Shown here: piece by piece, positions 23,474-44,606 of the stretch
Layout of the letters: the number at the start of each line of letters is the position of its first letter
How positions within the stretch are numbered: position 1 is the first letter of the stretch
Source: Escherichia phage TR2
Direction: 5' to 3' (one strand)
Sequence record: OP251154.1
DNA: 45,171 nucleotides
Notes under the pieces: generated by a model
Database searches by the model: none
Told to the model about the DNA's origin: nothing
What the model saw: only the letters and a program-made list of their open reading frames with translations
Made by a program: the position numbers and the translations under genes

Positions 23474-23514
23474 TACTCCATCGAAACGAAATGCACATTC
23501 TAAGGAATAAGAAA

Positions 23515-28128: not shown

Positions 28129-28176
28129 ATCACATTATCCTGTTTTGTTTTCGACTGTTTGTGCCATTCTACACTA

Positions 28177-28206
28177 AATAAAAAACCCGCACTAGGCGGG
28201 CTTTGA
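28177..28206 (-). terminator. rho-independent terminator (minus strand)
   Basis: Minus-strand read GCCCGCC-tagt-GCGGGC followed by T6. Confidence 0.55.
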
Positions 28207-28207
28207 T

Positions 28208-28783
28208 TTATGCAATATCTTGAGCGTAACTGCCGGCGCTAAATACAGAGCCGCCAACGCTTCGGTAGCCATAAGGTAGGCATACTGGATAACCAGCCGC
28301 GACGGTGTTAACCGCAGAGCCAAATGCATATGAAGCCCTGTTTTGTGCGGACTCCTGGTTTCTAAGTCCCGTTGCCTGCGGTGAAAGCAACTGAGCAATA
28401 CCGCCAGCAGCAAGTGAAATGCCAGCACCAAGAACAGCCGTTGCAATACCACCAGTAAAGAAGAAGCTAGCACCAATTAGTGCGGCCCCCAAAACAGTCT
28501 GGAACAGCCCACCACTCTTTCGGCCCTGAGGGATTGGCATGATGCGAATCTCCTTTACGGCCTTAAAGTCTTTAATGCGATGTTCGTTAAGGTTCTTGCC
28601 GTCCGCGAAGATTGCAAACCTGGTATTCTGCCCGACATGGCTCTGCATAAACTCTTTGAATGCTGGAATGTTCACAGATAATGCCCTTAACGCCTCAGGG
28701 ACTGACTCAACGCAAAGTTCATGAATCTTTCCGTACTTCCTGCCAAGAGATAAGCCCAATTTAATTTTAATCAGTCTCTGCAT
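28208..28783 (-). CDS. tail assembly protein (lambda gpI-like)
   Basis: Position after the gpK-like gene; Gly/Ala-rich hydrophobic C-terminus; start set at internal Met with AAGGAG SD. Confidence 0.55.
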   Translation of the reverse strand: MQRLIKIKLGLSLGRKYGKIHELCVESVPEALRALSVNIPAFKEFMQSHVGQNTRFAIFADGKNLNEHRIKDFKAVKEIRIMPIPQGRKSGGLFQTVLGAALIGASFFFTGGIATAVLGAGISLAAGGIAQLLSPQATGLRNQESAQNRASYAFGSAVNTVAAGYPVCLPYGYRSVGGSVFSAGSYAQDIA

Positions 28784-29513
28784 TGTAGTTTGCTCCTTCT
28801 GGTAAATCTTTGTGGCGAACAATGCGAACCGTACGCTCGCGCCAATAATCACTATAGGTATCAACTTTACTCATCTTCCCGTAAAGATGGTGCAAGAATT
28901 TGTTATCGCCAATATAGATTCCTGCGTGATTCGTGGTCTCACTTTGAATCTGCATCATAATCATGGAGCCAACAGGAATATCATCAGTTTCTAGTAGCTC
29001 AAATCCTTCCTTAATCCAATTGTCATCATATATATTTTCACCATACTCCTTGTTCCACCACGGGTAATTAACGCGGTAGTCAGCCAGTTTGACGCCGTGT
29101 TTTGCGTGGAATGCCATAATCAACCCCCAGCAATCAAAGCTACCCAAACCCCACGGCCTTCCTGCTAACGGCATGTCCTCTGGCTCAAGGATTCGCATAT
29201 CACCCTCAGGGTAACTAACAATTACATAAGGAATCTCGCACTCATTGCAACTGCATATATCTGCTGGACTAGGTCTGGTGGTGGCCCCATCCCCAGTGTG
29301 TGAGTGGACAATGTACACAACTCGCTCCTCATCGCTAATCTTCATGTACCCACTGGCATCAAGAATGAATTCATTCTCAGGGTCTTTAGATGTGTTAGTG
29401 ATTCGATGGTACTTCTGAGCCATACCTTTTTGGGTTACTACTCCGCAACATTCATTAGGGTAATCCTCTTTGGCGTGGCGCATGATTTCTAATTTAACTT
29501 TTGGTGTTAGCAT
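28767..29513 (-). CDS. tail tip assembly protein (lambda gpK-like, MPN/JAB plus NlpC/P60)
   Basis: HSHTGDGATTRPSPADICS JAMM-like motif and Cys/His peptidase-like C-terminus; start set at second ATG after ATTGGAG RBS. Confidence 0.7.
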   Translation of the reverse strand: MLTPKVKLEIMRHAKEDYPNECCGVVTQKGMAQKYHRITNTSKDPENEFILDASGYMKISDEERVVYIVHSHTGDGATTRPSPADICSCNECEIPYVIVSYPEGDMRILEPEDMPLAGRPWGLGSFDCWGLIMAFHAKHGVKLADYRVNYPWWNKEYGENIYDDNWIKEGFELLETDDIPVGSMIMMQIQSETTNHAGIYIGDNKFLHHLYGKMSKVDTYSDYWRERTVRIVRHKDLPEGANYNAETD

Positions 29514-29551
29514 TTTGTCTCCAATAAAAAAGGCCAATCTCTCGATTGACC
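29514..29551 (-). terminator. hairpin plus T6 fused to RBS (GGCC-T6-ATTGGAG) before the gpK-like gene
   Basis: Minus-strand read GGTCAATCgagaGATTGGCC, TTTTTT, ATTGGAGACAAA, ATG. Confidence 0.45.
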
Positions 29552-29577
29552 TAGTTTAACACTAATCTTGCTTTGTT

Positions 29578-29787
29578 TTAATCGATATGAGTAAAAATAC
29601 AATCATGGTCCGCAATTAAGCTTAGCATTGATGACTCAGGAAGGTATTCAAGGTGTAGCTTTGTTCCCATGTCATCTTTTATGAATAATTCTGACTCATC
29701 TCCATCGAGATTTAAAGTGTAGATATCACCAATAGTCAAATTCCAGTATTCGCTAGATCTTACGCATTCAATAAATTTACTTTTCAT
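29578..29787 (-). CDS. hypothetical protein (69 aa) inserted between gpL-like and gpK-like genes
   Basis: ORF track; own promoter cassette upstream. Confidence 0.4.
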   Translation of the reverse strand: MKSKFIECVRSSEYWNLTIGDIYTLNLDGDESELFIKDDMGTKLHLEYLPESSMLSLIADHDCIFTHID

Positions 29788-29817
29788 TTCTGTATCCTAT
29801 CGTTTGTGTAAAGTAAC

Positions 29818-29859
29818 TATATACCATCCCTGGCAGTTTGTATTTATCAAAAAATGCTA
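29818..29859 (-). promoter_or_regulatory. operator/-10 promoter cassette
   Basis: Plus 29845-29859 TATCAaaaaaTGCTA, 21-nt spacer, TATATA (plus 29818-29823), leader CACAAACGA. Confidence 0.5.
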
Positions 29860-30615
29860 TTAGTTCTGATTATTCTTAGCTTGTAAACTTGCGGAGGCAC
29901 ACCCCCCAAATGATAGCTGGTTGTTTTCACCAAACCTCAACTTACAGGCATCAACAGTTCCGGCGCAAAAATCTAACCCAGGGTCATCAACCGGATTATT
30001 GTCTTTGTCGAAGTAGCGATTCCCAGCATAATCGCAACCGTTGCCACTGCGATACCATCCACGAGAAGCAAAGTAACATACTGACTGGACTAGCCTCGCT
30101 GGAATATAGATACCATCCATATCAATTGGGCTAGATAACTCAAAAGAGGCAGTCTTGTAGTCAACCTGCTTTGGACGCTCAATAAAGTAAACCATCTTAC
30201 GATAATCGCCATCTGCAATGCTGCCATCATCATTGATATTATCCCTGATAGTAACCCAGATTGTTACCTTCGCCTGAACCATGCCATTGTACTGACGGAT
30301 TAGCGAGGAAACAGCCTGGTCAACGTTTGATAAAGTTAGCGTGAGCTTGTTTGCTTTTCCATCAGATGTAAGGTTGATGCCGCTAATGCCGAAAGGTCTG
30401 GCTCCATACTCTTCGCCACGAAATGTAATTGTCTTGGCTGGTAGTGGCTGACCAGATGCCTGGGCTTGCATGATTTCTTCAGGCGTGTATGAGATATTCT
30501 CCCCATGAAACCTGTAAACCCTTGCGCCGAACTTGCTGCCATCAACCTCAATAAGCGTAACCACTTCACCAGGGAAAAGTGATTGAAGTTGGTTTTCAAA
30601 CTTTACACTTGCCAT
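29860..30615 (-). CDS. minor tail protein (lambda gpL-like)
   Basis: Synteny TMP-M-L-K-I-J; size close to gpL; C-terminal Cys cluster. Confidence 0.65.
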   Translation of the reverse strand: MASVKFENQLQSLFPGEVVTLIEVDGSKFGARVYRFHGENISYTPEEIMQAQASGQPLPAKTITFRGEEYGARPFGISGINLTSDGKANKLTLTLSNVDQAVSSLIRQYNGMVQAKVTIWVTIRDNINDDGSIADGDYRKMVYFIERPKQVDYKTASFELSSPIDMDGIYIPARLVQSVCYFASRGWYRSGNGCDYAGNRYFDKDNNPVDDPGLDFCAGTVDACKLRFGENNQLSFGGCASASLQAKNNQN

Positions 30616-30650
30616 ACTCTCTCCAATAAAAAAGGCCCTCTATGGGCCTT
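30616..30650 (-). terminator. hairpin plus T6 fused to RBS before the gpL-like gene
   Basis: Minus-strand read GGCCCatagaGGGCC, TTTTTT, ATTGGAGAGAGT, ATG. Confidence 0.5.
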
Positions 30651-30653
30651 AGT

Positions 30654-31004
30654 TTAACTCATTGAGGTGAAAACTTCAGTAAATTGCATACTAACAGTCT
30701 GAACTTCTTTCGTGCTTGGCGAGACGCTAATGCTATCCTGCTGAATAACGAACAGTTTTAACTCACCCTGCGGCGTAGTCCACGCGAAAGGTTTTACGAT
30801 GTGATCGAAGCAGAAGTTCATTACTGCTTCCCACTCACGACCAACGTAGCTAACCGTATACGTCCTTTTATTCGTTCTGTAGCCTCCAGTACCACGCTGC
30901 TGAAATCCATTCCCAAATGAGACAACCCTAACATTGTTGGCGTTAGTAAATGAAGAGCCGCCATTGAGAACGTTCAAGCACCAGTTAAAAGTTTGCAATG
31001 CCAT
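30654..31004 (-). CDS. minor tail protein (lambda gpM-like)
   Basis: 116 aa directly downstream of the tape measure gene; synteny. Confidence 0.6.
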   Translation of the reverse strand: MALQTFNWCLNVLNGGSSFTNANNVRVVSFGNGFQQRGTGGYRTNKRTYTVSYVGREWEAVMNFCFDHIVKPFAWTTPQGELKLFVIQQDSISVSPSTKEVQTVSMQFTEVFTSMS

Positions 31005-31035
31005 TTAAAATCCTTAGTGGCCGAAGCCACATTAA

Positions 31036-34008
31036 TTAATTATAACCTCGCAAGAAAGCAAAGGCCCTGCCACCCTGCTGGAATGACTTGCTGATTTCCT
31101 CAGCCACGATAACCTTGACTCCAGATTCTATCGCCTTAGCATCATTACCGCCACCGATTCCAGAATTCACGTTAACAGTGATTCCGCTTACATTAACATT
31201 TGTACCGCCAACAACTCCACCATTAGCATAGCCAGAAGGCCCACCAACAGCGCCACCATTGGCATAACCTCGCATCAGCTTGTACAGGTTCTTAACGCCA
31301 ATCCTGTTGGTTGCTTCTTTGGTGAAAACAAATTCACCTTTGTGCACCGTTCCAGCAGGTTGATACTTCCCACCGTCACCAGTGTAGCCGCCGCCAGCAA
31401 ATCCAAGCGCACTACCAATTGAACCAATTGCGCCGCCAGTGCCACCAAAGCTACTCAAACTTGACTCAATAGCCTTAACAATCAGAAGCTGTGTCGCAAT
31501 CTTCGCAATCATTTTGAGGATGCTTACCGTGAACTCCCTGAAATTAGTCTCACCAGTGGTTACAAGGTTTGTAATCTGGTCGGTAATTCCATCAAAAGCT
31601 GCGACAGTCAAATCCTTAGCAATTTGGTTGAAGTCAGTGTACTTCTCAGTTAAGTCAGCAAGCGTTGAAGTTACACCAGCTTGCCAGTCTGACCTTAGGT
31701 TATCTTCCTGCCTGTAGTATTCTTTTCTTGCTTCCAGCAGATTCTGGAAATCAACATCATCTACAGATCCACCTTTGTTTAACTGATTGGACTCTAGCGC
31801 CTGAAGTTCTCTTGCCCTTTGCCGCTCCCTTTCGGATAGACCAGCAGCAAGTGAAACATTCTTCGCCTCATTGGTAATCTGTATTGTCTTCTTAAGGTTG
31901 TCATCAAGTAACTTGTTTGACCGCTCCTGAAGAACGATTCGGTCACCAAGTTCAGCCTTCTGTTTAGCTTGCTCAAGAATGATATCCTTCTGCGCTAGCA
32001 GTTTGGCTTGAGACTTAGTCAGGCTACCATCAGCATATCTTTGTTCAAGTATTGCAAACTTAGCTTCTTCCTGGAATAGCTGCTTTCGTTCGTTACTTAT
32101 TACATCATTTATCGTCCTATGCTCTTGCAAAGCCTTTAACTGAGCCTGAAGTGCAAGAACACCAGATTCATAAGATAAAGTTAAATCCATTTCTTCTTTT
32201 ACTGCCTTATTCCTCTCGCTCCTCGATTTCTTTATTGCATCAAGCTCGTCTGCTAGCGCTTTCTTCCTTGCTCCGAACTCCTTATCTGTTGATGCATTAT
32301 TCCCGCTCAGGTTAGTGTTATTGTTGCTCTCGACATAACCAAGTTCACCCTTCCTGATTCTCGCGTCTCGCTCAGCTATGCTTTTAGCTAACTCAATGTT
32401 TTGCTTCTTGGCAGCATCGACAATCTTTTGCTGCTCAGCGATTGCTTCATTGCCTAAATCGCCAAGTCCCGGGATTGACTGAAGCGTCTTGGTTGCAGCG
32501 ATAGCAAATTCACCAAGAAGAATGTCGCCTGAGTTTATGAACGACCTTATCTGCTCAATCGTCCCAGCAACAACGTCAGTTATTAAGTTAAGAGCACCAA
32601 GTGTCCTTTTGCCGATATCATCCCAAATATTACTTACAAACTTCCTGAAGCTATTCCATGCACTTTCTAGCGGATTGAGGCTTAGTGCAACATCTTCTAG
32701 CCTGTTTTCCATAACGTTAGCAAATAACTCAGTAGCTGCTGTTACAGCCTCAGTCTCTCCCGCTGTCTTCCTTAAGTTCTCTATGTGTTTTAACTGCCCA
32801 CTTTGAAGGAAGTTAAATTGCTTATCAAGCTCAGCAAGGCCTTTAACAGGGTCTTTTGTAATTTGGTCAAAGTACCCGAGAATGGTCTTTGAATCGGTTG
32901 ATGTTACTGCCGCCCACTGCGCTGTTGCCTTAGTTATCTTGTCTATCTGCGTAAGAGTTAGGTTTCCGTTTGCCACAAGGCTATTGGCTATTTCCTGAAT
33001 AAGTCCGCGAGTAGCTAGTGTTGATCTCTCAATTCCATCAACAACCTGATTTATCTGCGCTGTAGACGTGATAGTTGAGTTGCCAACCAACGTTATCGTA
33101 GATGCTAGTCCTCGAGCATTCTTATCGGCCTGATAAGCCGCAACACCCAAAGCGCCAAGAGCCAGGCCTAGAGTCCCAACAACTGCTGTTAATGGGTTAA
33201 TGGCTGCCAGTGCAAACCTTGCTGTATTTCCAATACCGCCAAAACTATCCTTAATCTGCCCACCCTGTTGGATTGCAACAAGCCAGACTGGCATGCCGCT
33301 AGCAAGGGAAGTTCCGATATCTGTAATCTGAGCGGGTAGCTGGCGAATCGCTTGCTTGTACTGACCGGCGCTTAAACCTGACTTAAGAAAAGCGGAACTC
33401 TGCTTCTGCAACTGAATAGCAGATGCCTCGGCAGCCTTACCAATCCTGTCGATAATAGGCGCAGCTTGGTCACTAACCCCTAGCTGAGCAGCCTTAAGCT
33501 GAAGCAGTTCAGTCCTTGTAAGGCTTGCTGCATTCGCCTCGTTCTCAAGAGATTGAATGAACTTTTGCGCCGCTGCTGTTGCCTTTTCTTTGTCTATTGA
33601 TGCCTGGAGTGCAGCCCGACCTTCCTCGCTAAGAGCAGCTTTAGACCTGTTGAGCTTATTGATTTGAGTTTCAATAACAGAGCCAAGCCTGAAGAATTCT
33701 TCATCAGGAACTATCCCAGATTCAAATGCTTTGTCTAATTCAGTTGCTGCCTTCTGCAACTTCTGGAATTTAGCGGCAGTTGGGTCTATGGCTTTCTGAA
33801 GTGATGCGAAAGATTTGCGCTGTTCCTCAAGCTGCCTTGCAGTGTCCCTTGCTTGAGTCTTGGCTACAAGCTCGGCGTTGATGAAGCTATTGATTCCCGT
33901 TGCAGCTTGCTCGTTTGCTTGCCTGAATTTCTGTAATGATTGCGTACCCTTATCGACCTGAGCGACGTCGACGGCTAGCGTGATACCAGCAATTTCGTTA
34001 GTTGCCAT
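31036..34008 (-). CDS. tail tape measure protein
   Basis: 990 aa, long coiled-coil segments and Gly-rich C-terminus; follows chaperones, precedes gpM-like gene. Confidence 0.85.
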   Translation of the reverse strand: MATNEIAGITLAVDVAQVDKGTQSLQKFRQANEQAATGINSFINAELVAKTQARDTARQLEEQRKSFASLQKAIDPTAAKFQKLQKAATELDKAFESGIVPDEEFFRLGSVIETQINKLNRSKAALSEEGRAALQASIDKEKATAAAQKFIQSLENEANAASLTRTELLQLKAAQLGVSDQAAPIIDRIGKAAEASAIQLQKQSSAFLKSGLSAGQYKQAIRQLPAQITDIGTSLASGMPVWLVAIQQGGQIKDSFGGIGNTARFALAAINPLTAVVGTLGLALGALGVAAYQADKNARGLASTITLVGNSTITSTAQINQVVDGIERSTLATRGLIQEIANSLVANGNLTLTQIDKITKATAQWAAVTSTDSKTILGYFDQITKDPVKGLAELDKQFNFLQSGQLKHIENLRKTAGETEAVTAATELFANVMENRLEDVALSLNPLESAWNSFRKFVSNIWDDIGKRTLGALNLITDVVAGTIEQIRSFINSGDILLGEFAIAATKTLQSIPGLGDLGNEAIAEQQKIVDAAKKQNIELAKSIAERDARIRKGELGYVESNNNTNLSGNNASTDKEFGARKKALADELDAIKKSRSERNKAVKEEMDLTLSYESGVLALQAQLKALQEHRTINDVISNERKQLFQEEAKFAILEQRYADGSLTKSQAKLLAQKDIILEQAKQKAELGDRIVLQERSNKLLDDNLKKTIQITNEAKNVSLAAGLSERERQRARELQALESNQLNKGGSVDDVDFQNLLEARKEYYRQEDNLRSDWQAGVTSTLADLTEKYTDFNQIAKDLTVAAFDGITDQITNLVTTGETNFREFTVSILKMIAKIATQLLIVKAIESSLSSFGGTGGAIGSIGSALGFAGGGYTGDGGKYQPAGTVHKGEFVFTKEATNRIGVKNLYKLMRGYANGGAVGGPSGYANGGVVGGTNVNVSGITVNVNSGIGGGNDAKAIESGVKVIVAEEISKSFQQGGRAFAFLRGYN

Positions 34009-34045
34009 ATTGTCTCCATAATAAAAAAGCCACCCCGAAGGATGG
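34009..34045 (-). terminator. hairpin (UUCG loop) plus T6 fused to RBS before the tape measure gene
   Basis: Minus-strand read AGCCATCC-ttcg-GGGTGGCT, TTTTTT, ATTATGGAGACAAT, ATG. Confidence 0.55.
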
Positions 34046-34297
34046 CTATTTCTTGGCGTTCATCATATCTAAGGCTTTAGCCTCAAGTATTCTGATATCG
34101 TTAAGTACCATTTCTTCATCATCTATTTTATAGACTTTGAACAAGAATGGAAGGCAATTATAATCAAGGCCTGTGGCACCGCAAGCACCTACTCGCCATT
34201 GTGTCGACATAGCACAGTACACATCCCAGCTTTGCATCATTGTTTCATCGAAGTGTAACTCTTCAGGCTCCTCACCTTCATAATCGGAACGTTTCAT
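34046..34297 (-). CDS. putative tail assembly chaperone (gpT-like position)
   Basis: Acidic 83-aa protein directly upstream of the tape measure gene. Confidence 0.4.
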   Translation of the reverse strand: MKRSDYEGEEPEELHFDETMMQSWDVYCAMSTQWRVGACGATGLDYNCLPFLFKVYKIDDEEMVLNDIRILEAKALDMMNAKK

Positions 34298-34359
34298 TCC
34301 GATAGCTTCGAGTTCGGCATCCGTTGGCGGTGACTGGTATTGTAAGTATACTGCGCGTT

Positions 34360-34674
34360 TTAGTTTTTTACTCGCTGCCCTGCAAGTGCTTTCATGTAGC
34401 TATCCATTAGCGATGGAACTGCACCAGGGAAAAGGTTTGCAAACTCATCGACGTTCTCATCGTTAAATGGTTCTTCTAAATCCCAGTCAGAGCAGATTTC
34501 GCTAATCAATTCCTTAGTGCTGAAGTTTTCACGATTAAGAATCTCCTGTAACTCAGATGATTTCTTGTGCTTAACTGTTAAGACTACTTCTGCGTCCTCT
34601 CCATTCGCAAGCTGAAACTTAACTGGAAGTTTAAAGTCAGGAAGCGCCTTAAGTGAAAGTTTGAATTTTGCCAT
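34360..34674 (-). CDS. putative tail assembly chaperone (gpG-like position)
   Basis: Acidic 104-aa protein between the major tail region and the tape measure gene. Confidence 0.4.
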   Translation of the reverse strand: MAKFKLSLKALPDFKLPVKFQLANGEDAEVVLTVKHKKSSELQEILNRENFSTKELISEICSDWDLEEPFNDENVDEFANLFPGAVPSLMDSYMKALAGQRVKN

Positions 34675-34709
34675 CTCGTTATCTCCTTTGTTTATGTTGA
34701 ATGATTATA

Positions 34710-34958
34710 TTACTTTGATTCGTTTTTTACAATGTTGTGAGCAACTTCGGTGCACACTTCGCGACCATAGTGCAGAATCTGGTTTGTCTTATCGCCAGCT
34801 ACTTTTTCACAATGCGAATATGCACTATTAAATTCATGTTCATACTTTATTGCATCAGAGTTTGCGGTTGCGCCACCAGTTGGGTTGACAATCTGAATTG
34901 CCAGGTAGAAAGCACCAAGAGCAGCAGTAAGTTTGATGATATTTTTAACGTTGTTCAT
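34710..34958 (-). CDS. small secreted protein with signal peptide (82 aa)
   Basis: N-terminal hydrophobic signal-like segment IIKLTAALGAFYLAIQIV; co-transcribed with membrane peptide from its own promoter. Confidence 0.45.
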   Translation of the reverse strand: MNNVKNIIKLTAALGAFYLAIQIVNPTGGATANSDAIKYEHEFNSAYSHCEKVAGDKTNQILHYGREVCTEVAHNIVKNESK

Positions 34959-34976
34959 TTTGTTTTCTCTCTCGTT

Positions 34977-35117
34977 TTAGCGATTACGCAGCGCTATCAC
35001 AATTAAAGCAAGCACAGCAGATACGAAGTAAGTGCCTATGGCTGCACCTAATGATACCCAAAAGGTTAGACCTGTAGCATAATAGAAAAAAGCGGTCAGC
35101 ATACCAATTAAAATCAT
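34977..35117 (-). CDS. small hydrophobic membrane protein (46 aa)
   Basis: Start set at internal Met MILIGMLTAFFYY...; two hydrophobic helices. Confidence 0.4.
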   Translation of the reverse strand: MILIGMLTAFFYYATGLTFWVSLGAAIGTYFVSAVLALIVIALRNR

Positions 35118-35156
35118 TTTGCTTACCTCTATAATCCATCTCGTTTCGATAAAGTA

Positions 35157-35199
35157 ATAATAGCAAATCCCTGCCACACGTCTTTAACAAAAAGTGCTA
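35157..35199 (-). promoter_or_regulatory. operator/-10 promoter cassette inside the tail module
   Basis: Plus 35185-35199 TAACAaaaagTGCTA, 22-nt spacer, TATTAT (plus 35157-35162), leader ATCGAAACGAG. Confidence 0.55.
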
Positions 35200-35203
35200 T
35201 CAA

Positions 35204-35225
35204 TAAAAAACCCTCCGAAGAGGGT
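35204..35225 (-). terminator. rho-independent terminator after the major tail gene
   Basis: Minus-strand read CCCTC-ttcg-GAGGG followed by T6. Confidence 0.6.
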
Positions 35226-35230
35226 TAATT

Positions 35231-35890
35231 TTATACTAGCTCAGAAGCCACAGAACTCAGCCTACCACGGATGGATACCGCGATGGATACCGTTTCGATT
35301 TCGTTAACACCAATGCTCGGGGTGTCGTTGAAAGAGATAGTGCCAGACTGAAGTCGCATCTCACTAGCGCGAGGCACGAACAGACGGATAGCAACAACCT
35401 GACCAGACTCATCATAGTTACGCAGAATCGGATATACCGGGTTGGTGTATTCGTGCGCGAACGTGTAGGTGTTAGTTACCGCAGACTTATAGGTTGGAAT
35501 CTTTTGCTCGCGGTCATCAGATAAACACTGGAAGTTAACGAACTGCTGTTCGCCGCCGTCAGTGGATACATCCTGAACACAAGGAACTTCAAACCAGCTA
35601 AGAATCTTAACTACTTCACCAGTTAAACCGGCTGGAAACTTAGTGTTGTTGGAGGTATCAATACCTTCAACAGTTACGTCCGAACCAGATACCGCAGTGA
35701 CACGAACTTGCTTATCAGCCAGAAGTGTTGAAGCTGAGCTGGTGAACAGCAGGTAATCCCCGCGCGCAATACCTGTGGCGTCGGACAAAGTTAAAACAGG
35801 AGCAACAGCATTGGTAATTGCTGTTACGTCGATAGTATTACCCCTAGTGCCCTCTACGAAGACCTGGGTGCCATTGCTGAGATGGGCCAT
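35231..35890 (-). CDS. putative major tail protein
   Basis: 219 aa, position between head-tail joining genes and chaperones; followed by strong terminator. Confidence 0.5.
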   Translation of the reverse strand: MAHLSNGTQVFVEGTRGNTIDVTAITNAVAPVLTLSDATGIARGDYLLFTSSASTLLADKQVRVTAVSGSDVTVEGIDTSNNTKFPAGLTGEVVKILSWFEVPCVQDVSTDGGEQQFVNFQCLSDDREQKIPTYKSAVTNTYTFAHEYTNPVYPILRNYDESGQVVAIRLFVPRASEMRLQSGTISFNDTPSIGVNEIETVSIAVSIRGRLSSVASELV

Positions 35891-35901
35891 ATATTTTCCT
35901 T

Positions 35902-36300
35902 TTAGTCAAGACGAACATAGAAACGAACTGGAATAAACCAGCCAGATTTTGACTTCACTACCGGGTGAACTACTCCGCCCTCATAAATGTAGCCTGTGTC
36001 AAGCATTGTACCATCAAGCATTGATTCTGCCAATTGATTCGCCAACCTCCTTGCGCTATCAACACCATCACCTGGTGAGAAAAATACAGAGACCTGAACC
36101 ATGCCGACATAGTATTTGCACTTGCGACTCAAGCTATAGGTTACGGTATCGGCCTCAGTGTAGTCGTACTTCAGCCACATACCGCCATTACTTGGAGGAG
36201 AGAATGCTACGTTTTCGTAGGAGATTGGATACCTGACTGGAAACGTTTTAACCAAATCAGTCACAAACCTCCTTGATGCTAAAGATAGCTCATACTGCAT
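35902..36300 (-). CDS. putative tail terminator / tail completion protein
   Basis: Position and size only. Confidence 0.4.
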   Translation of the reverse strand: MQYELSLASRRFVTDLVKTFPVRYPISYENVAFSPPSNGGMWLKYDYTEADTVTYSLSRKCKYYVGMVQVSVFFSPGDGVDSARRLANQLAESMLDGTMLDTGYIYEGGVVHPVVKSKSGWFIPVRFYVRLD

Positions 36301-36746
36301 TATCGTTTACTCCTCGCTTCAGCAACGGCTTCCTCAAAGTATCGACCAAGTCTGATATTAACTACACCAAGTACACCTGCTGGCGCTTGCTGCGATGCAC
36401 CGTATTCAAGATCTGACGCATAATCTAGCCTGTTGGTTATGTAGATAACCTTTGTTGCTGGTGAGTTAGCTACTGCTCTGGCTTGTCTTGCAAGGTACCT
36501 TTTTGTATCACCGCCAGTCTTGTCGTAATCATTTAACGACTGTACTGCTGGTGAGTTTGCTGTAATCTGCCAGTTAGCCTTAAACCTACCAGTATCAACA
36601 GGAGATAAATCAACAATGGCGTTAGCTGCTTTAATTACAGTGCCTGAAACAATTTCAGAAAAACCATCATCAGCTCTTGAAATCCAGTCATTGATAGAGT
36701 TCGTGAATGTAGCTAAGCCACCAACATTATTAGCCATAAGCAGCAA
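36300..36746 (-). CDS. putative neck / head-tail joining protein
   Basis: Position and size only. Confidence 0.4.
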   Translation of the reverse strand: MLLMANNVGGLATFTNSINDWISRADDGFSEIVSGTVIKAANAIVDLSPVDTGRFKANWQITANSPAVQSLNDYDKTGGDTKRYLARQARAVANSPATKVIYITNRLDYASDLEYGASQQAPAGVLGVVNIRLGRYFEEAVAEARSKR

Positions 36747-37113
36747 TCCTCCTCAGAATTGGCCTGTATGCGACTACAGTACCTGTTGGTTTCACTGGTC
36801 TCGGGTCGACTACAGTGTAAGTTTCATCGTCCACAATAATCCTGTAGCCCTGTAAGATTGGGACTTCGGAAGTGAAGATTCCACGCTTATCGCCAAACTG
36901 AATATACTCACCATCAATATCTCTGGTTTTAATCTCCCTCACCAGCCCCTTGATTAATGCAGTGCCGCCAGATACAGGAACCTCGACACCATCGACAATC
37001 TCCACCCCACCTTTACCAGTTTCCATGGTAAACGTACCATCGCCATCACTAAAGATATTGATTCCCGTTCGCATTAATGATTCGATTTGAGAGTAATTCA
37101 TCGGCAACCGCAC
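36730..37113 (-). CDS. putative head closure protein
   Basis: Position and size only. Confidence 0.4.
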   Translation of the reverse strand: MRLPMNYSQIESLMRTGINIFSDGDGTFTMETGKGGVEIVDGVEVPVSGGTALIKGLVREIKTRDIDGEYIQFGDKRGIFTSEVPILQGYRIIVDDETYTVVDPRPVKPTGTVVAYRPILRRIAAYG

Positions 37114-37508
37114 CCACGCCCACCGGACGTAACCAATCCAAAGCCACCACCTTTCTTACGCAGAAGGTTCCAGTACAGACGACCCCACGGGGTGGAAGTC
37201 AGTGCTGATTGTGATTGAGACGTTGATTCATAGCTGATAGAGAACTCACCACTCAGTGAGTAACTTGCCACCTTCTTACCGTAATCATCCAAAGACTCAT
37301 TCTGCTTAAGTGCACCATCAAGAAAGGCAATGTGCATAGTGTACAGTGCCAGTGCCTTGTAAGCATCATCACCAAACTTACTGGTACAGATGTAAAGCTT
37401 GGCTAGCTCAAGCCATACGTCAAGTGTTTCATCAGAAACATTCTTAAGGGCAGGAACTAATGACCTCATGAATGCTAATGCTTGTTCGTTCATATTACCT
37501 CCATACAA
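37098..37508 (-). CDS. putative head-tail adaptor
   Basis: Position and size only. Confidence 0.4.
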   Translation of the reverse strand: MYGGNMNEQALAFMRSLVPALKNVSDETLDVWLELAKLYICTSKFGDDAYKALALYTMHIAFLDGALKQNESLDDYGKKVASYSLSGEFSISYESTSQSQSALTSTPWGRLYWNLLRKKGGGFGLVTSGGRGCGCR

Positions 37509-37534
37509 AAACGGACGCCGAAGCGCCCATTTTG

Positions 37535-37780
37535 TTATTTGTACTCGTTGCCAGTCTCGGCTTCAGAGATGGTCTTTGGTTCTTTGCGTTTTTTCTGACT
37601 GTTGATTTCTTGCGCCACTTCTTTAGTTGCCTTGTAGTCACCTTCAATGGTGAGTTTACCTTCAGCAATCAGGCGTTTCAGTCCATCACAAAGCTCACTT
37701 GCTTCAATTGTGTCGCCAGGTAAGTATTTAGCACCTTTATAAACAATCATGCACGCGCCAGTGTGTTCTAACTTAATCAT
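37535..37780 (-). CDS. hypothetical protein (81 aa)
   Basis: ORF track; TATAAT directly abutting an operator half-site upstream (plus 37809-37828). Confidence 0.4.
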   Translation of the reverse strand: MIKLEHTGACMIVYKGAKYLPGDTIEASELCDGLKRLIAEGKLTIEGDYKATKEVAQEINSQKKRKEPKTISEAETGNEYK

Positions 37781-37810
37781 TACTTGCTCCTTTTATTAAT
37801 TGATGATTGA

Positions 37811-38419
37811 TTATAGCACTAAACAATCGCCTTCGTGAACCCCATTGGCGTTTCCGTACTCGCCGAATATTTCTTTACACCAACTGTCGTAACACTCCTT
37901 AGCCTCTTCAATTGTGTCAAACCTTTTAGCCATCCTTACATCTCCGCAATCCTTTTGTATCTGGGCTTTCCACTTCACCCTTGATTTATCGTAGCTAACA
38001 CCTTTAAATCCACTCTTGTTCCTTTTGTATAGGCTCGTATTCATCATGTTCTCACTTCGAGTAACAACCCTTAGGTTTTCCACCCTATTGTTTAATGAGT
38101 TACCATCAATGTGATCTATCTCACCTGTCGGCCAACTCCTGTGATGATAAAACCACTTTAACTTATGCATTGAAACGTGAAACTTCTTCCCGGAAACTTT
38201 AATACATAGCTTCCACATCTTACTTTCTGGGCATGTTGGGTTTGGAGTGAATTCACCTCCAGCAACCTTTCCGGCGTACCTTGAATTCCATACATTTGTA
38301 AACCTATCATTTCCCGGCTTTACTTTCCATGTCATAACGGGACTTTCAGAATCTGATTCAAGTCTTGATGTTAGCTCTTCGTGAGTTAGTAGTTCTTCAA
38401 TTTTCATTTTCGCCTCCAT
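37811..38419 (-). CDS. HNH homing endonuclease with AP2 domain
   Basis: IDHIDGNSLNNRVENLRVV plus AP2-like KSGFKGVSY...W.A.I. Confidence 0.8.
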   Translation of the reverse strand: MEAKMKIEELLTHEELTSRLESDSESPVMTWKVKPGNDRFTNVWNSRYAGKVAGGEFTPNPTCPESKMWKLCIKVSGKKFHVSMHKLKWFYHHRSWPTGEIDHIDGNSLNNRVENLRVVTRSENMMNTSLYKRNKSGFKGVSYDKSRVKWKAQIQKDCGDVRMAKRFDTIEEAKECYDSWCKEIFGEYGNANGVHEGDCLVL

Positions 38420-38435
38420 TGTTTTGATGGAAACA

Positions 38436-38478
38436 AAAATACCACCTTTCGGTGGTATTGTTTTGTCATTTAGTGCTA
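38436..38478 (-). promoter_or_regulatory. operator/-10 promoter cassette with embedded terminator hairpin (weak -10)
   Basis: Gene-orientation TAGCActaaaTGACA (plus 38464-38478), 22-nt spacer holding ATACCACCgaaaGGTGGTAT, TATTTT, leader CATCAAAACAA. Confidence 0.4.
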
Positions 38479-39423
38479 TTAGGCAAAGGTAATTCCTTTG
38501 ATAGCTGCCACTGTAAGAGGGCGATATAAAATCAAACCTGTCGCCTTAGAGGTTACAGGGAAGCGGAAGTGAAGATCACGAGGCTGACCAGGTAAAACGT
38601 TTGTAACTTCCGGAATCTCGATGCTCATGTTGAGCGGATCCTTTTCAAACGCCAGCGCAGCTTTACCGCCAGCACCATCGTAGTTATCCAGGACCTGCAT
38701 AAAGCGCAGGGTTACACCTGGGTTGTTACGAGTAAACAACTCGCCATAGCTCAGGGTTGTATTATCAACAAGGCGCTGCATTACACGGCGAGCGGAAGCT
38801 GGCAGCAGAATGTCAGTTACATGGTGGAAGCCCTGTGTGCTGGTTTCTACAGCATCAATCATTGCGGTAACGTCGTTAACCGCGTTAATTGGATTGCTCC
38901 AGTTTGGAGTTGCAACAACGTTGTTGATGTTCGGCTGGTTAAATACGCTTACGATGCCGTGAGGTGCAGAGCCAGACCATACCAGTTTATCAAGCAGGTT
39001 GTCGTGAGCTTCAAAAGCCAAAGCCTGTTTGCGAGCGGACAGTGACTGACCAGTAGCAGCGCCAACTTTAATCTCATCAACTGAGATCATAAACGCATTA
39101 CCGAAGCGGAATACTTTACCCTGCTTCTCGGTCATGAAAGCATCAACCATCGGCAGGTCGTCAGAGTAATCAGCGATGATCTGAGCAATACCAACACCAT
39201 CGAACTCATTGTATTCGAAGTATTTCGCGTGACCAGGGATTTCGTTGGTTACTGGGAAGATGTTGACAACTGAGTTGTCTGCGTATTCTTTTTCGTAAGC
39301 GCGATTCAGTGATGCGGTTAACTGCTTAACGGTCCAGATACCAGCAGCATCAGCCTTATCTACGCCCATTTGCTCTAGGTGAGCGGTGATTTTTGCTTGT
39401 TCTGCATCAAATTTAATGGCCAT
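38479..39423 (-). CDS. major capsid protein
   Basis: 314 aa in canonical position after portal, protease/scaffold and decoration candidates. Confidence 0.7.
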   Translation of the reverse strand: MAIKFDAEQAKITAHLEQMGVDKADAAGIWTVKQLTASLNRAYEKEYADNSVVNIFPVTNEIPGHAKYFEYNEFDGVGIAQIIADYSDDLPMVDAFMTEKQGKVFRFGNAFMISVDEIKVGAATGQSLSARKQALAFEAHDNLLDKLVWSGSAPHGIVSVFNQPNINNVVATPNWSNPINAVNDVTAMIDAVETSTQGFHHVTDILLPASARRVMQRLVDNTTLSYGELFTRNNPGVTLRFMQVLDNYDGAGGKAALAFEKDPLNMSIEIPEVTNVLPGQPRDLHFRFPVTSKATGLILYRPLTVAAIKGITFA

Positions 39424-39513
39424 TCTTGTTTATTCCTTTTCAGTTAGGTATGTACGAGTCAATTATACACTAGTTTGAGGACCGCGCAATGATTCTATCA
39501 TGACCAAGCGGAA

Positions 39514-39545
39514 GGTATAAAAAAACCTCCCGAAGGAGGTTGTTT
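39514..39545 (-). terminator. rho-independent terminator upstream of the capsid gene
   Basis: Minus-strand read CCTCC-ttcg-GGAGG followed by T7; candidate TTGCGC-16-TATAAT promoter at plus 39462-39489. Confidence 0.55.
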
Positions 39546-39565
39546 ATTTGTGCATTCAGATTTTG

Positions 39566-40060
39566 TTAAGCCACAGTTGAGTCTGCGGATTGAATCAGCT
39601 GAACTTCAACCAGTGCGCCATCAACGCTTTCACTAGCTGATACATAGCCACCAGCAAATGTGAAACCAGTTCCCCAGGTAGAACGTCCCACTTTAGCGGC
39701 AACAACGCCACTTTCATTTACGAAAACCTTGTCACCAAATGCCGGAGCAGCTGCAAGAGTAGTGCGAACCCAAATACGACCAGAAGTCATTACGTTAACT
39801 GCCTCAAGGCCGCGAGCCTGACCATCTGGAGTCTCATAATGAGATTTAACAACAACGCCGTAAGGTTTAATTGCAGTTCCTGATATAGCCGGAAGGGCAA
39901 CAACCTTGTGACCATCTACTGGCTGAGCGGTGCTAACACCTACGAATGTTCCAACCGGGATTCTAGTGGCAGCAGTACCACCAACCACACAAGCACCATC
40001 GATATTATACAGGGAAGTATCAGCTACCATACCTGCCAGAGCTACAGAACGAATTGCCAT
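39566..40060 (-). CDS. capsid-associated protein (possible decoration protein)
   Basis: 164 aa, Gly/Val/Ala-rich, between protease/scaffold and capsid genes. Confidence 0.4.
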   Translation of the reverse strand: MAIRSVALAGMVADTSLYNIDGACVVGGTAATRIPVGTFVGVSTAQPVDGHKVVALPAISGTAIKPYGVVVKSHYETPDGQARGLEAVNVMTSGRIWVRTTLAAAPAFGDKVFVNESGVVAAKVGRSTWGTGFTFAGGYVSASESVDGALVEVQLIQSADSTVA

Positions 40061-40071
40061 TATCTATCTCC

Positions 40072-41184
40072 TTACTTTTTAATTTTAGCCAGACGAGCAC
40101 GTGGGTCTAATTTCTTAGGTTCGTCAGCTTTGTCAGATTTGTCGGAAGCTACGGTAGCTTTACGAACTTCAGCCATTTTATCAGAATCCTTGGCAATGTC
40201 GAACGCTGCGTCGATGTATGCGTCGGATTTATCAGCAACATCAAGGCCGGAAACTTCTTTAACGTAAGCTACTTTGATGCCTTTAGCATCCAGACCATCA
40301 GTCTTAATTCCAACCTCTGCGGCTACAGTAACCAGAGCGGCAAGTGCTTCAGCGTCGGCTTTAGCAGCTTTAACGGCTTTCTCGATTTCAGCAGGCATCG
40401 CGTCTACTTTAGCCTTCAGCGCATCACGCTCAGCTTCAATGCAGTCGGCTTTGGTTTTAGCGTCAACTGCATCTTTTTTAATAGCTTCAATGTGTGCGGC
40501 AACTTCTGGAGCGATTTCGAACTCCTGGGCGCCATCCAGTTTAATCTTAACCATTTCTTTAACATCCTCTTTAATAGAATCAACGCTGTCAGTATACGGG
40601 TTTTCCTGTTCTGCGTCCATATTCAATTTTGCAACACCTGCGCGACCTTTGTATACCATTGCAACGTGATTAACAATAATGTTAGTTTGCAGTGCATCAA
40701 AACGAACCCAGTCAGGTGGAATTTCATCTTGGGACTCGTAATCACCATCCAACTTGTATTCACCAGTCTCATTACTCCCCCAACCTGGAGACTCAACATC
40801 AACAGTCGAGTAGCCTACAGATAACTCGGCGGCAATGCCAGATTTAGCTTTCTCGATTGATTCCTTGTCGTAAACGGTTAGTGGAACTACCACGTTCGAA
40901 TCCTGACGCATTGCTGAGCCAGACACTGAGCCTACAACTACCTGCTTGGCATTATCAACGTTAACAAACACGTGGCCTAAGGTAATCGGCTTGCCCTGAT
41001 AACTTGCAAGAGAATCAGCTTTAAAGACCTCTGAAGCTGGCCTAAATTCGCGTCGTTCCGAGCCATCTGGCAGGTAGTATGATTGCACGCCTACGCGAGC
41101 AACCACAGGTGTATCTACCAGGAATCCGTTTTCGTCAAATCGCGCTTTAACTTTTGCACTGTCATAACGAATTTTAGCTTTCAA
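40072..41184 (-). CDS. putative prohead protease / scaffold protein
   Basis: Globular N-terminal domain plus Ala/Lys/Glu/Asp-rich coiled-coil C-terminal half; follows portal. Confidence 0.5.
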   Translation of the reverse strand: MKAKIRYDSAKVKARFDENGFLVDTPVVARVGVQSYYLPDGSERREFRPASEVFKADSLASYQGKPITLGHVFVNVDNAKQVVVGSVSGSAMRQDSNVVVPLTVYDKESIEKAKSGIAAELSVGYSTVDVESPGWGSNETGEYKLDGDYESQDEIPPDWVRFDALQTNIIVNHVAMVYKGRAGVAKLNMDAEQENPYTDSVDSIKEDVKEMVKIKLDGAQEFEIAPEVAAHIEAIKKDAVDAKTKADCIEAERDALKAKVDAMPAEIEKAVKAAKADAEALAALVTVAAEVGIKTDGLDAKGIKVAYVKEVSGLDVADKSDAYIDAAFDIAKDSDKMAEVRKATVASDKSDKADEPKKLDPRARLAKIKK

Positions 41185-42448
41185 TTACAATCTCCTCTTT
41201 TGGTGATTCTTCTTGTGCGGGCTGCTCAGTTACAATCGAACCTTCACCAATCTTAACCTCAGGGGCTAATGCGCGCAAGGTATCTCGTGCTTCATCTGCG
41301 TCCATTACTCCGTTAGTGATGAGAGTGGCGATTGAATCAACGTTATTCTTCAGTATTTCAGCGCGGTCCTTCTTCGATTCCTGAGCTAGCGGATTAAACT
41401 CAACTGACCATTCCTGCTCGGTTGTGATGAACGGGATTAAAAAAACAAGAACAGGGAGTAATTCTTCATTTCTCTTGCGGTCGATTAGTTTATGGAATGT
41501 CTCCAATGCTGTGTTTTGGCTTGATGACAAACCACCAACGTTACGGCCTTTGAGGATGATTTCATGAATACCACTCAGAGCAACAATCCTGTCGAATTTC
41601 TTATCCAGGAATCCATCAATCCCACCAATATCCGAGTTCAGAACACTGTACTCTTCAGACTCTGCATCAATACCAATCGCGCGACCAACGCCGGAATTAT
41701 CATCAACCTGAGCCAGCCTTAACCTTGCCGCACCAAAACCTTCTGCGTCGTCACACAATTCAGCAAGCCCCTTCGCCTTCCATACCGCCTGTTGCTTACG
41801 GCGCAATAACTGGGTTGCCAGTTTCTCGCACGTCTGATAATCCTTGATTGCCTCCAGTAGGTCAGGAACCAGAACGCTAGCACCCCACCCATCATTGCCG
41901 AGACGCAATGAGCTAGGAATCTTCTCTCCATCCATAATGTGAACTCGAGAGTAATGCACATCATAAAACGTGGAGCTACCTTCAGGTGTTATGCGGTACG
42001 TTAGTGGTTTTCCAAATCGAACATTGCGAGGATTCTCCTCCTTCGCTTGCACCCTCACCTGACTGCGATCGTATACTCGAAGCGATTCAAGTTCAGCACC
42101 TTCACGTACCGGACTAGTTAGCGCACGATTATCCTTAACGATAGCCACAATAGCTGAGCCGCCGAACAACCTCGCCCATGACCATGCGTCAGAGATTGAC
42201 TCGTTGACCTTTAGGTAATCCCACCTTGACCAGAATTCACCCTCGTTATCAATGCCATCAATATGGAAACCTGCGGCGATTGCTGTCTCTGGGATGGTAT
42301 CGACGATGCGGCGAACCAGTGAGTTAGACACGTAAAGTGAATCGGCGAATGGTGGCGCAAGGTAAGTGTTGCCGAATTGCCCGTAAATCTCGCTACCATC
42401 ACTAGTTCCACCCAGGAACTGCGTGGCGTATGAATCTGCTTTTACCAT
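41174..42448 (-). CDS. portal protein
   Basis: Follows large terminase; size fits; start set at second ATG (MVKADSY) after ATTGGAG RBS. Confidence 0.75.
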   Translation of the reverse strand: MVKADSYATQFLGGTSDGSEIYGQFGNTYLAPPFADSLYVSNSLVRRIVDTIPETAIAAGFHIDGIDNEGEFWSRWDYLKVNESISDAWSWARLFGGSAIVAIVKDNRALTSPVREGAELESLRVYDRSQVRVQAKEENPRNVRFGKPLTYRITPEGSSTFYDVHYSRVHIMDGEKIPSSLRLGNDGWGASVLVPDLLEAIKDYQTCEKLATQLLRRKQQAVWKAKGLAELCDDAEGFGAARLRLAQVDDNSGVGRAIGIDAESEEYSVLNSDIGGIDGFLDKKFDRIVALSGIHEIILKGRNVGGLSSSQNTALETFHKLIDRKRNEELLPVLVFLIPFITTEQEWSVEFNPLAQESKKDRAEILKNNVDSIATLITNGVMDADEARDTLRALAPEVKIGEGSIVTEQPAQEESPKEEIVIES

Positions 42449-42497
42449 TTTCTTGCTCCAATAAAAAAGCCCCATTTAAGAGGCTAGTTTATCACGC
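42449..42497 (-). terminator. weak hairpin plus T6 fused to RBS before the portal gene
   Basis: Minus-strand read AGCCtcttaaatgGGGCT, TTTTTT, ATTGGAGCAAGAAA, ATG. Confidence 0.35.
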
Positions 42498-44069: not shown

Positions 44070-44071
44070 TG

Positions 44072-44578
44072 TTACGCTCTCGTATTTAGGTAGCCTTTAT
44101 TTTCAGAGCCATGATTTTCATGATATCCGTTCAATTTGTCATACTGCGACCTTGCCAATGCAGCCTCCTCTATAGTGTCCTTGTAGCATATGAAGACTGT
44201 TTTACCAAACTCTCTAGCCTGAACAAGCCATCTATTCTCTCTTTTGCACCAGCTTACACCGTTTATTCCGCTTTTATTTCTTGATGATAGTGATCTGTTA
44301 TTTGAGTTCTCTTTATTGCTTACTAACCTTAAGTTCTCTATTCTATTGTCACTTCTATTTTGGTTTATGTGATCTATGTGCATGCCTTTAGGGATTGCTC
44401 CATTGTGCATCTCCCACACCACCCTGTGACACCTGTATGCTTTTTGTCTATACTTTAGTATCACATAGCCAAATTTATCAACTCTTCCGGCCACCTCTCC
44501 AACCTTTGATACATTTGCTACTTTTACCTTTCTTATTAAAAGCCCGTCTCTATATTCAAAAATATCATGCCAATTCAT
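44072..44578 (-). CDS. HNH homing endonuclease with AP2 domain, between small and large terminase genes
   Basis: IDHINQNRSDNRIENLRLV plus AP2-like NKSGINGVSW. Confidence 0.8.
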   Translation of the reverse strand: MNWHDIFEYRDGLLIRKVKVANVSKVGEVAGRVDKFGYVILKYRQKAYRCHRVVWEMHNGAIPKGMHIDHINQNRSDNRIENLRLVSNKENSNNRSLSSRNKSGINGVSWCKRENRWLVQAREFGKTVFICYKDTIEEAALARSQYDKLNGYHENHGSENKGYLNTRA

Positions 44579-44606
44579 ATGATCACCTCGCTAGTTTGTT
44601 GGGCCC

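Follow-up and report, generated by a model that had tools for sequence, protein, structure and literature searches.

Terminator-like hairpins fused to ribosome-binding sites ahead of structural genes in the late region of Escherichia phage TR2

In the stretch of Escherichia phage TR2 considered here (sequence record OP251154.1; the window, below, means the whole of its 45,171 nucleotides), the structural, or late, genes lie on the minus strand, and four of them, those for the portal protein, the tape-measure protein (TMP) and the gpL-like and gpK-like minor tail proteins, are each preceded by a GC-rich hairpin and a run of six T residues (T6) that passes directly into the ribosome-binding site (RBS) and the ATG. 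This raises the question of what an element with the look of an intrinsic terminator does immediately ahead of a gene that has to be expressed. We consider that the four cassettes are probably leaky intrinsic terminators of the T1-like kind, with the U-tract running straight into the next RBS, and that they are best explained as elements already recognised in T1-like phages at the level of prediction, which are here compacted against the next RBS. The four sites had been pointed out in a sequence-only reading of the window, and all of them were recovered in place on the minus strand (Table 1). A PHROGs search confirmed the M-, L- and K-like minor tail proteins, the gpL-like product matching a PHROG minor tail protein.

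Anatomy and conservation of the four cassettes

Read on the minus strand, the portal site runs gTGaTAAACT-AGCCTCttaaatGGGGCT-TTTTTATT-GGAG-caagaaa-ATG, the gpL site agtTAAACT-AAGGCCCatagaGGGCCTT-TTTTATT-GGAG-agagt-ATG, the gpK site gTGtTAAACT-AGGTCAATCgagaGATTGGCCT-TTTTTATT-GGAG-acaaa-ATG and the TMP site aagaaaT-AGCCATCCttcgGGGTGGCT-TTTTTATTAT-GGAG-acaat-ATG. The stems are GC-rich and of 6-9 bp, with loops of 4-6 nt and folding energies of -8.6 to -12.9 kcal/mol; at the portal gene, for example, the stem-loop is AGCCTC-TTAAAT-GGGGCT and T6 occupies 42468..42463. The T6 run abuts the stem at all four sites, with 6-7 U among the nine bases after the stem, and a terminator scan flags every one of them. 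The folding z-scores in context are -2.6 to -3.4 at three sites and -1.1 at gpL. The gaps from the upstream stop codon to the stem are -2 nt (TMP), 3 nt (gpL), 12 nt (portal) and 25 nt (gpK), all four hairpins being on the sense strand, intergenic and downstream of the stop. Moreover, one or two A residues stand directly 5' of the GC core, a position where A residues are reported to raise termination efficiency (2026 preprint). The cassettes thus carry the sequence features of intrinsic terminators, namely the GC stem, the abutting U-tract, the post-stop intergenic site and the stem changes in relatives that are described below.

The junction of the U-tract and the RBS is itself a repeated unit. 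The 13-mer TTTTTTATTGGAG is present in three exact copies with no mismatch, where 0.01 would be expected, and its counterpart at TMP is ATTATGGAG. The element ATTGGAG, which had been read at all four sites, is exact at portal, gpL and gpK, while TMP has ATTAT before GGAG. We also considered ATTGGAG as a generally preferred RBS context of this phage and rejected it, as there are 8 occurrences where 6.6 would be expected, and none outside the three cassettes serves as an RBS.

It is noted that the close neighbourhood of hairpin and gene bears on the choice of start codons. The sequence-only reading had placed the first in-frame ATG of both the portal and the gpK gene inside the hairpin and had moved both starts to the second ATG. 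At the portal gene there is such an ATG (42475, in the loop), but at gpK the upstream in-frame start is a TTG (29537, in the stem). The second starts themselves hold for both genes: the same Shine-Dalgarno (SD)-proximal ATGs are used in the GenBank annotation of TR3 (PP069512.1; Drexlerviridae, Braunvirinae, T1/Rtp-like), which has 100% identity with the window over a 6-kb stretch around the cassettes, an upstream in-frame start is missing from 5 of 13 close relatives at portal, and in six relatives at gpK the ATG is preceded, at 3-12 nt, by an in-frame stop.

The cassettes were then compared in three annotated relatives and 84 IMG/VR loci around the gpL-like and portal genes, the orthologous starts being located by tblastn and a hairpin with T-run being counted within 80 nt upstream of the start. 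Such a hairpin is present at the portal junction in 52 of 53 loci, with 10 distinct GC cores, and at the TMP junction in 31 of 32, with 4 distinct GC cores. At the gpL junction it is found in 17 of 31 loci (7 distinct GC cores) and is absent in the T1 group, and at the gpK junction in 2 of 33 (one GC core). With the same finder the background is 3.4% of random 88-nt windows and 31% of the regions upstream of large late-strand open reading frames (ORFs) in the loci. The portal stems include GCCTC/GGGGC, GCCCCT/AGGGGC, GGCTGGA/TCCAGCC and GGGCCA/TGGCCC, and the TMP stems are GCCATCC, CCCGC, CCTCC and GCCGCC in the different lineages. As a MAFFT alignment of the portal cassettes left the stems out of register, pairs were counted by anchoring on the base of the stem; G-C and C-G are both seen at the same pair positions, and both sides of the stem have changed among the portal, TMP and gpL orthologs. 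The frequency of the hairpins and the diversity of their stems indicate that they are under structural selection. Moreover, in all orthologs the T-run (T4-T8) follows the stem without a gap, with ATT or ATTAT as a short linker to the SD, the stop codon abuts the TMP stem in all four stem lineages, and the portal and TMP hairpins are kept even where the neighbouring protein is down to ~40-45% identity over its N-terminal 120 residues. To judge from these loci, the punctuation of gene starts by hairpins is a habit of the phage family.

Termination, read-through and the upstream ribosome

Based on this anatomy, we propose that each cassette would act as an intrinsic terminator whose U-tract (UUUUUUAUU) lies immediately ahead of the SD GGAG and the start codon of the next gene. 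The terminator would end or attenuate the upstream transcription unit, which fits the 'transcripton' layout proposed for phage T1. Since no canonical promoter lies between the hairpin and the ATG, the portal, TMP, gpL and gpK genes need read-through and would be expressed largely by way of it; or, more generally, since essential genes stand directly behind the cassettes, some read-through or re-initiation is required. At TMP, gpL and portal, with transcription and translation coupled, the ribosome finishing the upstream gene would cover the 5' arm of the hairpin and block its folding, and the leak would thus be set mainly by the stop-to-stem geometry. A comparable dependence has been measured on lambda tR2 in E. 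coli (Li et al., NAR 2016, PMC4824070), where the efficiency fell from ~90% to <10% as the distance of the upstream stop codon was cut from 28 to 5 bp, was maximal only beyond ~27-30 nt, and where the repression was abolished by uncoupling translation. The likeness is that of a terminator a few nt past a translated ORF and tuned by the stop-to-hairpin distance; the difference is that tR2 was studied in an engineered reporter in uninfected cells, whereas here the geometry is natural and conserved and is followed at once by the next RBS. We therefore infer ribosome-gated, conditionally leaky termination in vivo at TMP and gpL, and perhaps at portal.

The cassettes had been taken by the sequence-only reading for partial terminators that set stepwise drops in transcript level along the late operon. 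The terminator part of this claim is borne out by the anatomy and the structural conservation, and partial termination is plausible at TMP, gpL and portal; but no mark in the sequence denotes 'partial', and the picture of steps is too simple.

Several points weigh against the proposal of leaky terminators. Firstly, the stems and U-tracts of the four cassettes are no weaker than in the terminators at the ends of gene blocks (-10.9 to -16.7 kcal/mol), so that 'partial' is argued from the need to express the downstream genes and from a ribosome occlusion that was measured on another terminator. Secondly, the gpK cassette, with its 25-nt gap and strong U-tract, should terminate efficiently, yet gpK, gpI and gpJ lie behind it, and their expression would be left to residual read-through or to another start. 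Thirdly, terminator function alone does not explain the flank TGnTAAACT at three of the sites. Fourthly, the finder required perfect pairing, and thus the information lies in how often a hairpin is present and in how many different stems occur, not in the figure of 100% paired positions. Finally, our literature search for transcript 3'-end, read-through, Term-seq or RNA-seq data found none for Drexlerviridae. Note also that the efficiency expected at gpK, which should be the highest of the four, fits a role in closing an inserted gene that bears its own promoter.

In T1-like phages (T1, TLS, Rtp and the AHP24 group), which have the same gene junctions and the same hairpin-plus-U-tract anatomy and belong to the same family, terminators have been predicted before. 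The re-annotation of TLS gives 21 putative rho-independent terminators, all intergenic, and its Table S1 lists terminator T30 as 'ggctggaatattccggcctttttattat' (PMC11447400). T30 is the hairpin upstream of the portal gene that we recovered in the T1/TLS-like loci, and it is the ortholog of the portal cassette hairpin. The same source, citing T1, describes the late region of T1 as transcriptons flanked by terminators (PMC11447400), and 18-21 terminators per genome are given for four T1-like O157 phages. In what is accessible of these papers the hairpins are listed as program predictions, and the fusion of U-tract and SD, the -10-like flank, the abutment of the stop codon and the link to inserts are not described. 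Our finding thus mostly confirms knowledge at the annotation level, the abutment of stop codons and the -10-like flank being the points of note.

Internal partial terminators are known from other systems, such as the rplL-rpoB attenuator and the T7 terminator T-phi after the capsid gene, and the likeness of such elements to the cassettes is the step in transcript abundance. The RNA polymerase on which T-phi acts is that of the phage itself; T1-like phages encode no polymerase. Among intra-operon partial terminators, that of mccA-mccB (PMC4231749) shares with the cassettes a position between co-directional genes and the need for downstream expression; however, in the mcc operon ribosome binding reportedly promotes termination, while the effect that we suppose here would be the opposite.

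The four sites are not a closed set. A census of hairpins with T-run gave about ten on the late strand (at 42485, 39541, 38459, 37531, 35226, 34047, 30650, 29552, 28204 and 24738), and the four of the sequence-only reading are an arbitrary subset of these. Another late-strand hairpin, 37531..37510, is fused to its SD as in the cassettes (TTTGTATGGAGGTAATATG), and a further one of this type lies on the plus strand (Table 1). Stop codons lie 3-4 nt from the stem also at the 37531, 35226 and 28204 hairpins. A T-rich 9-mer directly before the SD is found at 6 of the 54 SD-preceded ATG starts in the window, and these are exactly the six hairpin-fused ones. As a side observation, a hairpin of 20 nt (AAAGCCCCGAAAGGGGCTTT, or its reverse complement) recurs in opposite orientations at 18157..18176 and 24718..24737, in both cases as a bidirectional terminator-like element at the boundary of two convergent gene blocks.

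AU-rich leaders enhance translation and terminal hairpins stabilise mRNA, and it could therefore be argued that the cassettes are elements of RNA processing, stability or translation with no real termination, the hairpin protecting the 3' end of the upstream or the 5' end of the downstream segment after endonucleolytic cleavage in AU-rich flanks and the U-rich linker serving as an unstructured landing site for the ribosome (S1) that boosts translation of the next gene. The conserved structure, the U-rich single-stranded stretch that adjoins the SD on its 5' side in precisely those genes that a hairpin precedes, and the predicted folds, in which the SD and start codon are largely unpaired, would all be expected from this. 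Nevertheless we hold it to be improbable. A stabilising hairpin needs no abutting T-run, yet the position of T5-T8 is invariant across lineages and is the defining feature of a terminator; the same type of hairpin closes the convergent gene blocks at 18157..18176 and 24718..24737, where only termination makes sense; and in a search of the window with Rfam 15 at the gathering threshold the single match was the tRNA at 325..397, with no cassette family and no known processing motif. A likeness of UUAAACUA to the translational enhancer 'epsilon' of T7 gene 10 was dropped, the sequences being out of register.

Table 1. Positions of the cassettes and of related elements in the window (ATG, stop codon and hairpin positions as read on the strand given; DR, direct repeat, see next section)
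Feature	Coordinates	Strand	Parts and context
Portal cassette	42446..42494	-	TGATAAACT 42494..42486; hairpin 42485..42468; T6-ATT 42468..42460; GGAG 42459..42456; ATG 42448..42446
Stop upstream of portal cassette (TerL)	42500..42498	-	12 nt 5' of stem
TMP cassette	34006..34048	-	hairpin 34047..34028; T6 34028..34023; ATTAT; GGAG 34017..34014; ATG 34008..34006
Stop upstream of TMP cassette (TAG)	34048..34046	-	2-nt overlap with stem
gpL-like cassette	30613..30659	-	TAAACT 30656..30651; hairpin 30650..30632; T6-ATT-GGAG 30633..30621; ATG 30615..30613
gpK-like cassette	29511..29561	-	TGTTAAACT 29561..29553; hairpin 29552..29531; T6-ATT-GGAG 29531..29519; ATG 29513..29511
Inserted module ahead of gpK cassette	29562..29860	-	DR 29860..29843, starting at gpL stop; -10 TATAGT; 69-aa ORF 29787..29578
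Fifth RBS-fused hairpin	37491..37531	-	hairpin 37531..37510; TTTGTATGGAGG (TTTGTAT then GGAGG); ATG 37493; stop 3 nt before stem
Sixth RBS-fused hairpin (from census)	15082..15104	+	ATG 15129
Terminator-like hairpin before major capsid gene	39524..39541	-	extended -10 TGaTAGAAT downstream, ~39500..39492
Terminator-like hairpin after major capsid gene	38438..38459	-	overlaps degenerate DR 38479..38462
Terminator-like hairpin and DR promoter after major tail gene	35183..35226	-	hairpin 35226..35209; DR 35200..35183 immediately after
Terminator-like hairpin between gpI-like and gpJ-like genes	28182..28204	-	-10-like TAGAAT downstream; ATG 28128, 53 nt away
DR-type promoter upstream of HNH/TerL	44633..44650	-	nearest upstream canonical promoter for transcripts reaching portal cassette

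Promoters of the late region and the conserved 5' flank

The control of late genes in T1-like phages is poorly understood; these phages have no RNA polymerase or sigma factor of their own, and programs predict few promoters. The conserved hairpins, the abutment of stop codons and the alternation with a family of promoters would give testable rules for how the ratios of structural proteins are set under the host polymerase. The promoter family concerns a 21-nt direct repeat (DR), aaATAGCACnnnTTGnTAAAA, to which the authors of the TLS paper could not assign a function (PMC11447400). In the window there are ~18 copies of it; with up to 3 mismatches allowed, 26 matches are found against 6.65 expected. 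The copies (ATAGCACnnnTTGnTAAA) lie on both strands, for example at 2052..2035(-), 3655..3672(+), 4465..4482(+), 8526..8509(-), 12076..12059(-), 14567..14550(-), 15059..15076(+), 19368..19351(-), 19922..19905(-), 22304..22321(+) and 23430..23447(+), with 44650..44633, 35200..35183 and 29860..29843 on the late strand (all minus), and every good copy points toward the genes that follow it. A -35-like hexamer (AAGACA or TAAACA) overlaps with the repeat at the 3' end of the latter, and a spacer of 16-18 nt leads from this hexamer to a -10 (TATAAT, TATTAT, CATAAT, TATGAT or TATAGT), and several of these promoters are also picked by a generic promoter scan. From the overlap with the -35-like hexamer, the spacer and the good -10, the DR looks like the upstream half of the main promoter family of the phage, and it is possibly a factor-binding site at about -55 to -38.

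Two observations on these promoters stand apart from the cassettes. The predicted 5' untranslated region of most of their transcripts has a leader motif, (c/a)aTCGAAACGA(a/g), located ~10-20 nt past the -10 and ~15-25 nt before the SD, e.g. after the copies at 12076, 35200, 23430, 19368 and 4465. In addition, hairpins lie within or overlap the spacer between -35 and -10 at 4480..4497(+), 2031..2012(-), 9714..9699(-), 15082..15104(+) and 44625..44600(-), one of them terminator-like (AAAGCCCTTCGGGGCTTT), so that promoter and terminator overlap elsewhere in the genome too.

As the capsid gene also has its own extended -10, TGaTAGAAT, following the 39541 hairpin, the late region is one of alternating promoters and terminators rather than one operon with monotonic decay. 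The single late operon with stepwise drops of the sequence-only reading is contradicted by the internal promoters at 44650, 35200 and 29860 and by that before the capsid gene at ~39500..39492.

The DR was sought in the four cassettes and is in none of them, and none has a DR ~20 nt upstream of a -10. Three of them (portal, gpL and gpK, not TMP) nonetheless have a common 5' flank, (TG)nTAAACTA, which had gone unmentioned in the sequence-only reading. In the register of an extended -10 the flank reads TGaTAAACT at portal, TGtTAAACT at gpK and aGtTAAACT at gpL, with nothing similar at TMP. Among the portal orthologs, a hexamer TA[ACT]A[AC]T is present in 33 of 33 distinct sequences, 0-4 nt before the GC core, as TATAAT in 14, TAAACT in 8, TACAAT in 6, TAAAAT in 4 and TACACT in 1. 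Conservation here extends beyond the one or two A residues that adjoin the core.

It can thus be supposed that the cassette is a composite of terminator and promoter, in which TGnTAAACT is an extended -10 abutting the hairpin and transcription restarts inside the hairpin. Incoming transcripts would be stopped by the full hairpin while local ones, lacking the 5' arm, would run into the U-rich leader, the SD and the gene, so that the expression of portal, gpL and gpK would be reset at each cassette and not attenuated. This would add to termination by the cassettes. The predicted +1 (the 7th nt after the hexamer) falls in the loop at portal, and at gpL and gpK no more than 1-3 nt of the 5' arm would remain, and a transcript that starts there without the 5' arm would escape the terminator. 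Moreover, T1, A2, A4 and T6 of the hexamer are invariant at portal against 10 changes of the adjacent stem, TGn stands in the proper register at portal (in the subfamily of the window) and at gpK, and the flank persists behind TerL as well as behind an inserted ORF. The three hairpins that have room downstream, namely those before the major capsid gene, after the major tail gene and before gpJ, serve as controls: they have variable A-rich 5' flanks, and their -10 comes after the T-run (TGnTAGAAT, TGnTAGACT, TGnTACAAT, TTATAAT or DR), which indicates that the phage family does use the extended -10 type beside terminators.

Other causes of the conserved flank were tried and rejected. Pairing of the flank with the U-tract linker (UGAUAAA-UUUAUUG), which appears in minimum-free-energy folds, would leave the invariant last T as a T-T mismatch and offer only wobble at its UG/UG ends, and the hexamer type shows no covariation with the ATT or ATTAT linker, a result that also favours the composite. 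A mere relic of a stop codon is true for gpL, where TAAACT includes the gpM-like stop TAA (30656..30654), but not for portal and gpK, where the stops are 12 and 25 nt upstream, and stop codons in all three frames are provided by the flank at the gpL site only.

On the other side, there is no conserved -35, the best match being 4/6 for portal and gpK and poor for gpL; gpL has no TGn, its TAA being the stop codon of gpM; TAAACT matches the -10 consensus in 4 of 6 positions, so that a promoter here could only be a weak one; the hexamer is lacking in the TMP and 37531 cassettes though downstream expression is needed equally there; none of the four cassettes has the strong DR architecture of this phage; and A-rich sequence 5' of terminators is to be expected anyway. 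Taking both sides together, we regard the composite as a tentative alternative that is unlikely but deserves a place beside leaky termination, and we are doubtful of the stricter form of it, in which the portal junction of Drexlerviridae, and gpL and gpK in the lineage of the window, would be a three-in-one module of ~45 nt for -10, terminator and SD. If this were true, neighbouring transcription units would be insulated and reset, in a conserved manner, in almost no intergenic space. As compact natural combinations of terminator and RBS, the cassettes may in any case be of use in the design of synthetic operons.

It is also noted that in distant Drexlerviridae (loci L047-L066 and others) a full DR that includes the TerL stop is found within the stretch 45-10 nt ahead of the portal hairpin, and only 6-9 nt separate this DR from the portal TATAAT, versus the usual ~20, the hairpin coming next.

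The module ahead of gpK and the surroundings in the window

The gpK cassette differs from the other three in its history. In most relatives gpL and gpK are spaced by 9-13 nt, with a 10-nt overlap in the T1 group, while the window and TR3 have a 346-nt insert between them that consists of a DR promoter, a 69-aa ORF and the cassette. For this ORF (29578..29787, minus strand) a PHROGs search gave no match, and tblastn against 88 fetched loci gave a match in the TR3 record only. In another locus, L006, the insert measures 499 nt and combines a DR promoter and a different ORF with a gpK cassette identical to that of TR3. From this comparison, the gpK cassette is the 3' end of an inserted promoter-ORF-terminator module and not ancestral to the tail operon; it would act as the terminator of this module, and it carries the RBS that gpK now uses. 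A related arrangement is seen at the portal junction of phage ES, where a DR promoter starting from the TerL stop and a 117-aa ORF are inserted ahead of the cassette, and the cassette, TGcTAAACT-hairpin-T5-ATTGGAG, is still beside the portal ATG.

The gpL-gpK junction as a whole is a hot spot of insertion, with at least six states among loci L001-L033: the 10-nt overlap, the gap of 9-13 nt, the two inserts of DR, ORF and cassette with different ORFs, inserts of ~545-563 nt with a DR-like start, and an insert of 618 nt, which in Rao1 (L002) consists of a Rha-like gene on the reverse strand with a hairpin of its own.

Morons, a concept from lambdoid phages, are inserts of promoter, gene and terminator between conserved phage genes. 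Only the gpK cassette is comparable to them, as it closes a unit of DR promoter, small ORF and terminator between genes that are adjacent in relatives. The differences are that the terminator of the insert is here fused to a new RBS of the downstream essential gene, and that one 3' cassette is common to inserts carrying different ORFs.

A further explanation would be that the likeness of the cassettes is a by-product of recent duplication or recombination, with linkers at module boundaries being copied along with mobile ORFs and having no regulatory role. Consistent with it, the gpK and gpL cassettes share GTTAAACTA(A)GG...GGCCTTTTTTATTGGAGA, TR3 and L006 have an identical gpK cassette with different ORFs ahead of it, and the inserts begin with a DR exactly at stop codons and end at cassettes. 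However, the three ATTGGAG cassettes have entirely different stems and are therefore not simple copies, and the portal and TMP hairpins, as described above, are kept over a wide range of protein divergence with two-sided changes of the stem, which requires selection on structure. We thus consider this explanation very improbable as compared with a role of the cassettes in termination.

As for the surroundings, the late region (24944..45171) has 98-100% identity to TR3, while for ~15054..24943 better matches are found in phages other than TR3. Collinearity with TR3 is lost in this segment, where 15818..19371, for example, has 91% identity to a different locus. The phage is thus mosaic, with arms of the TR3 type around a central module of another kind, to which a 498-aa ORF (16659..18155) belongs. 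Two ORFs that are HNH endonucleases in the TR3 annotation lie within the packaging and head block: 44072..44578(-) is between TerS and TerL, with a DR promoter ahead of it, and 37811..38407(-) follows the capsid gene, behind the degenerate DR that overlaps the post-capsid hairpin. The tRNA at 325..397, on the minus strand, is annotated as tRNA-Arg (CCT) in TR3 and TR1.

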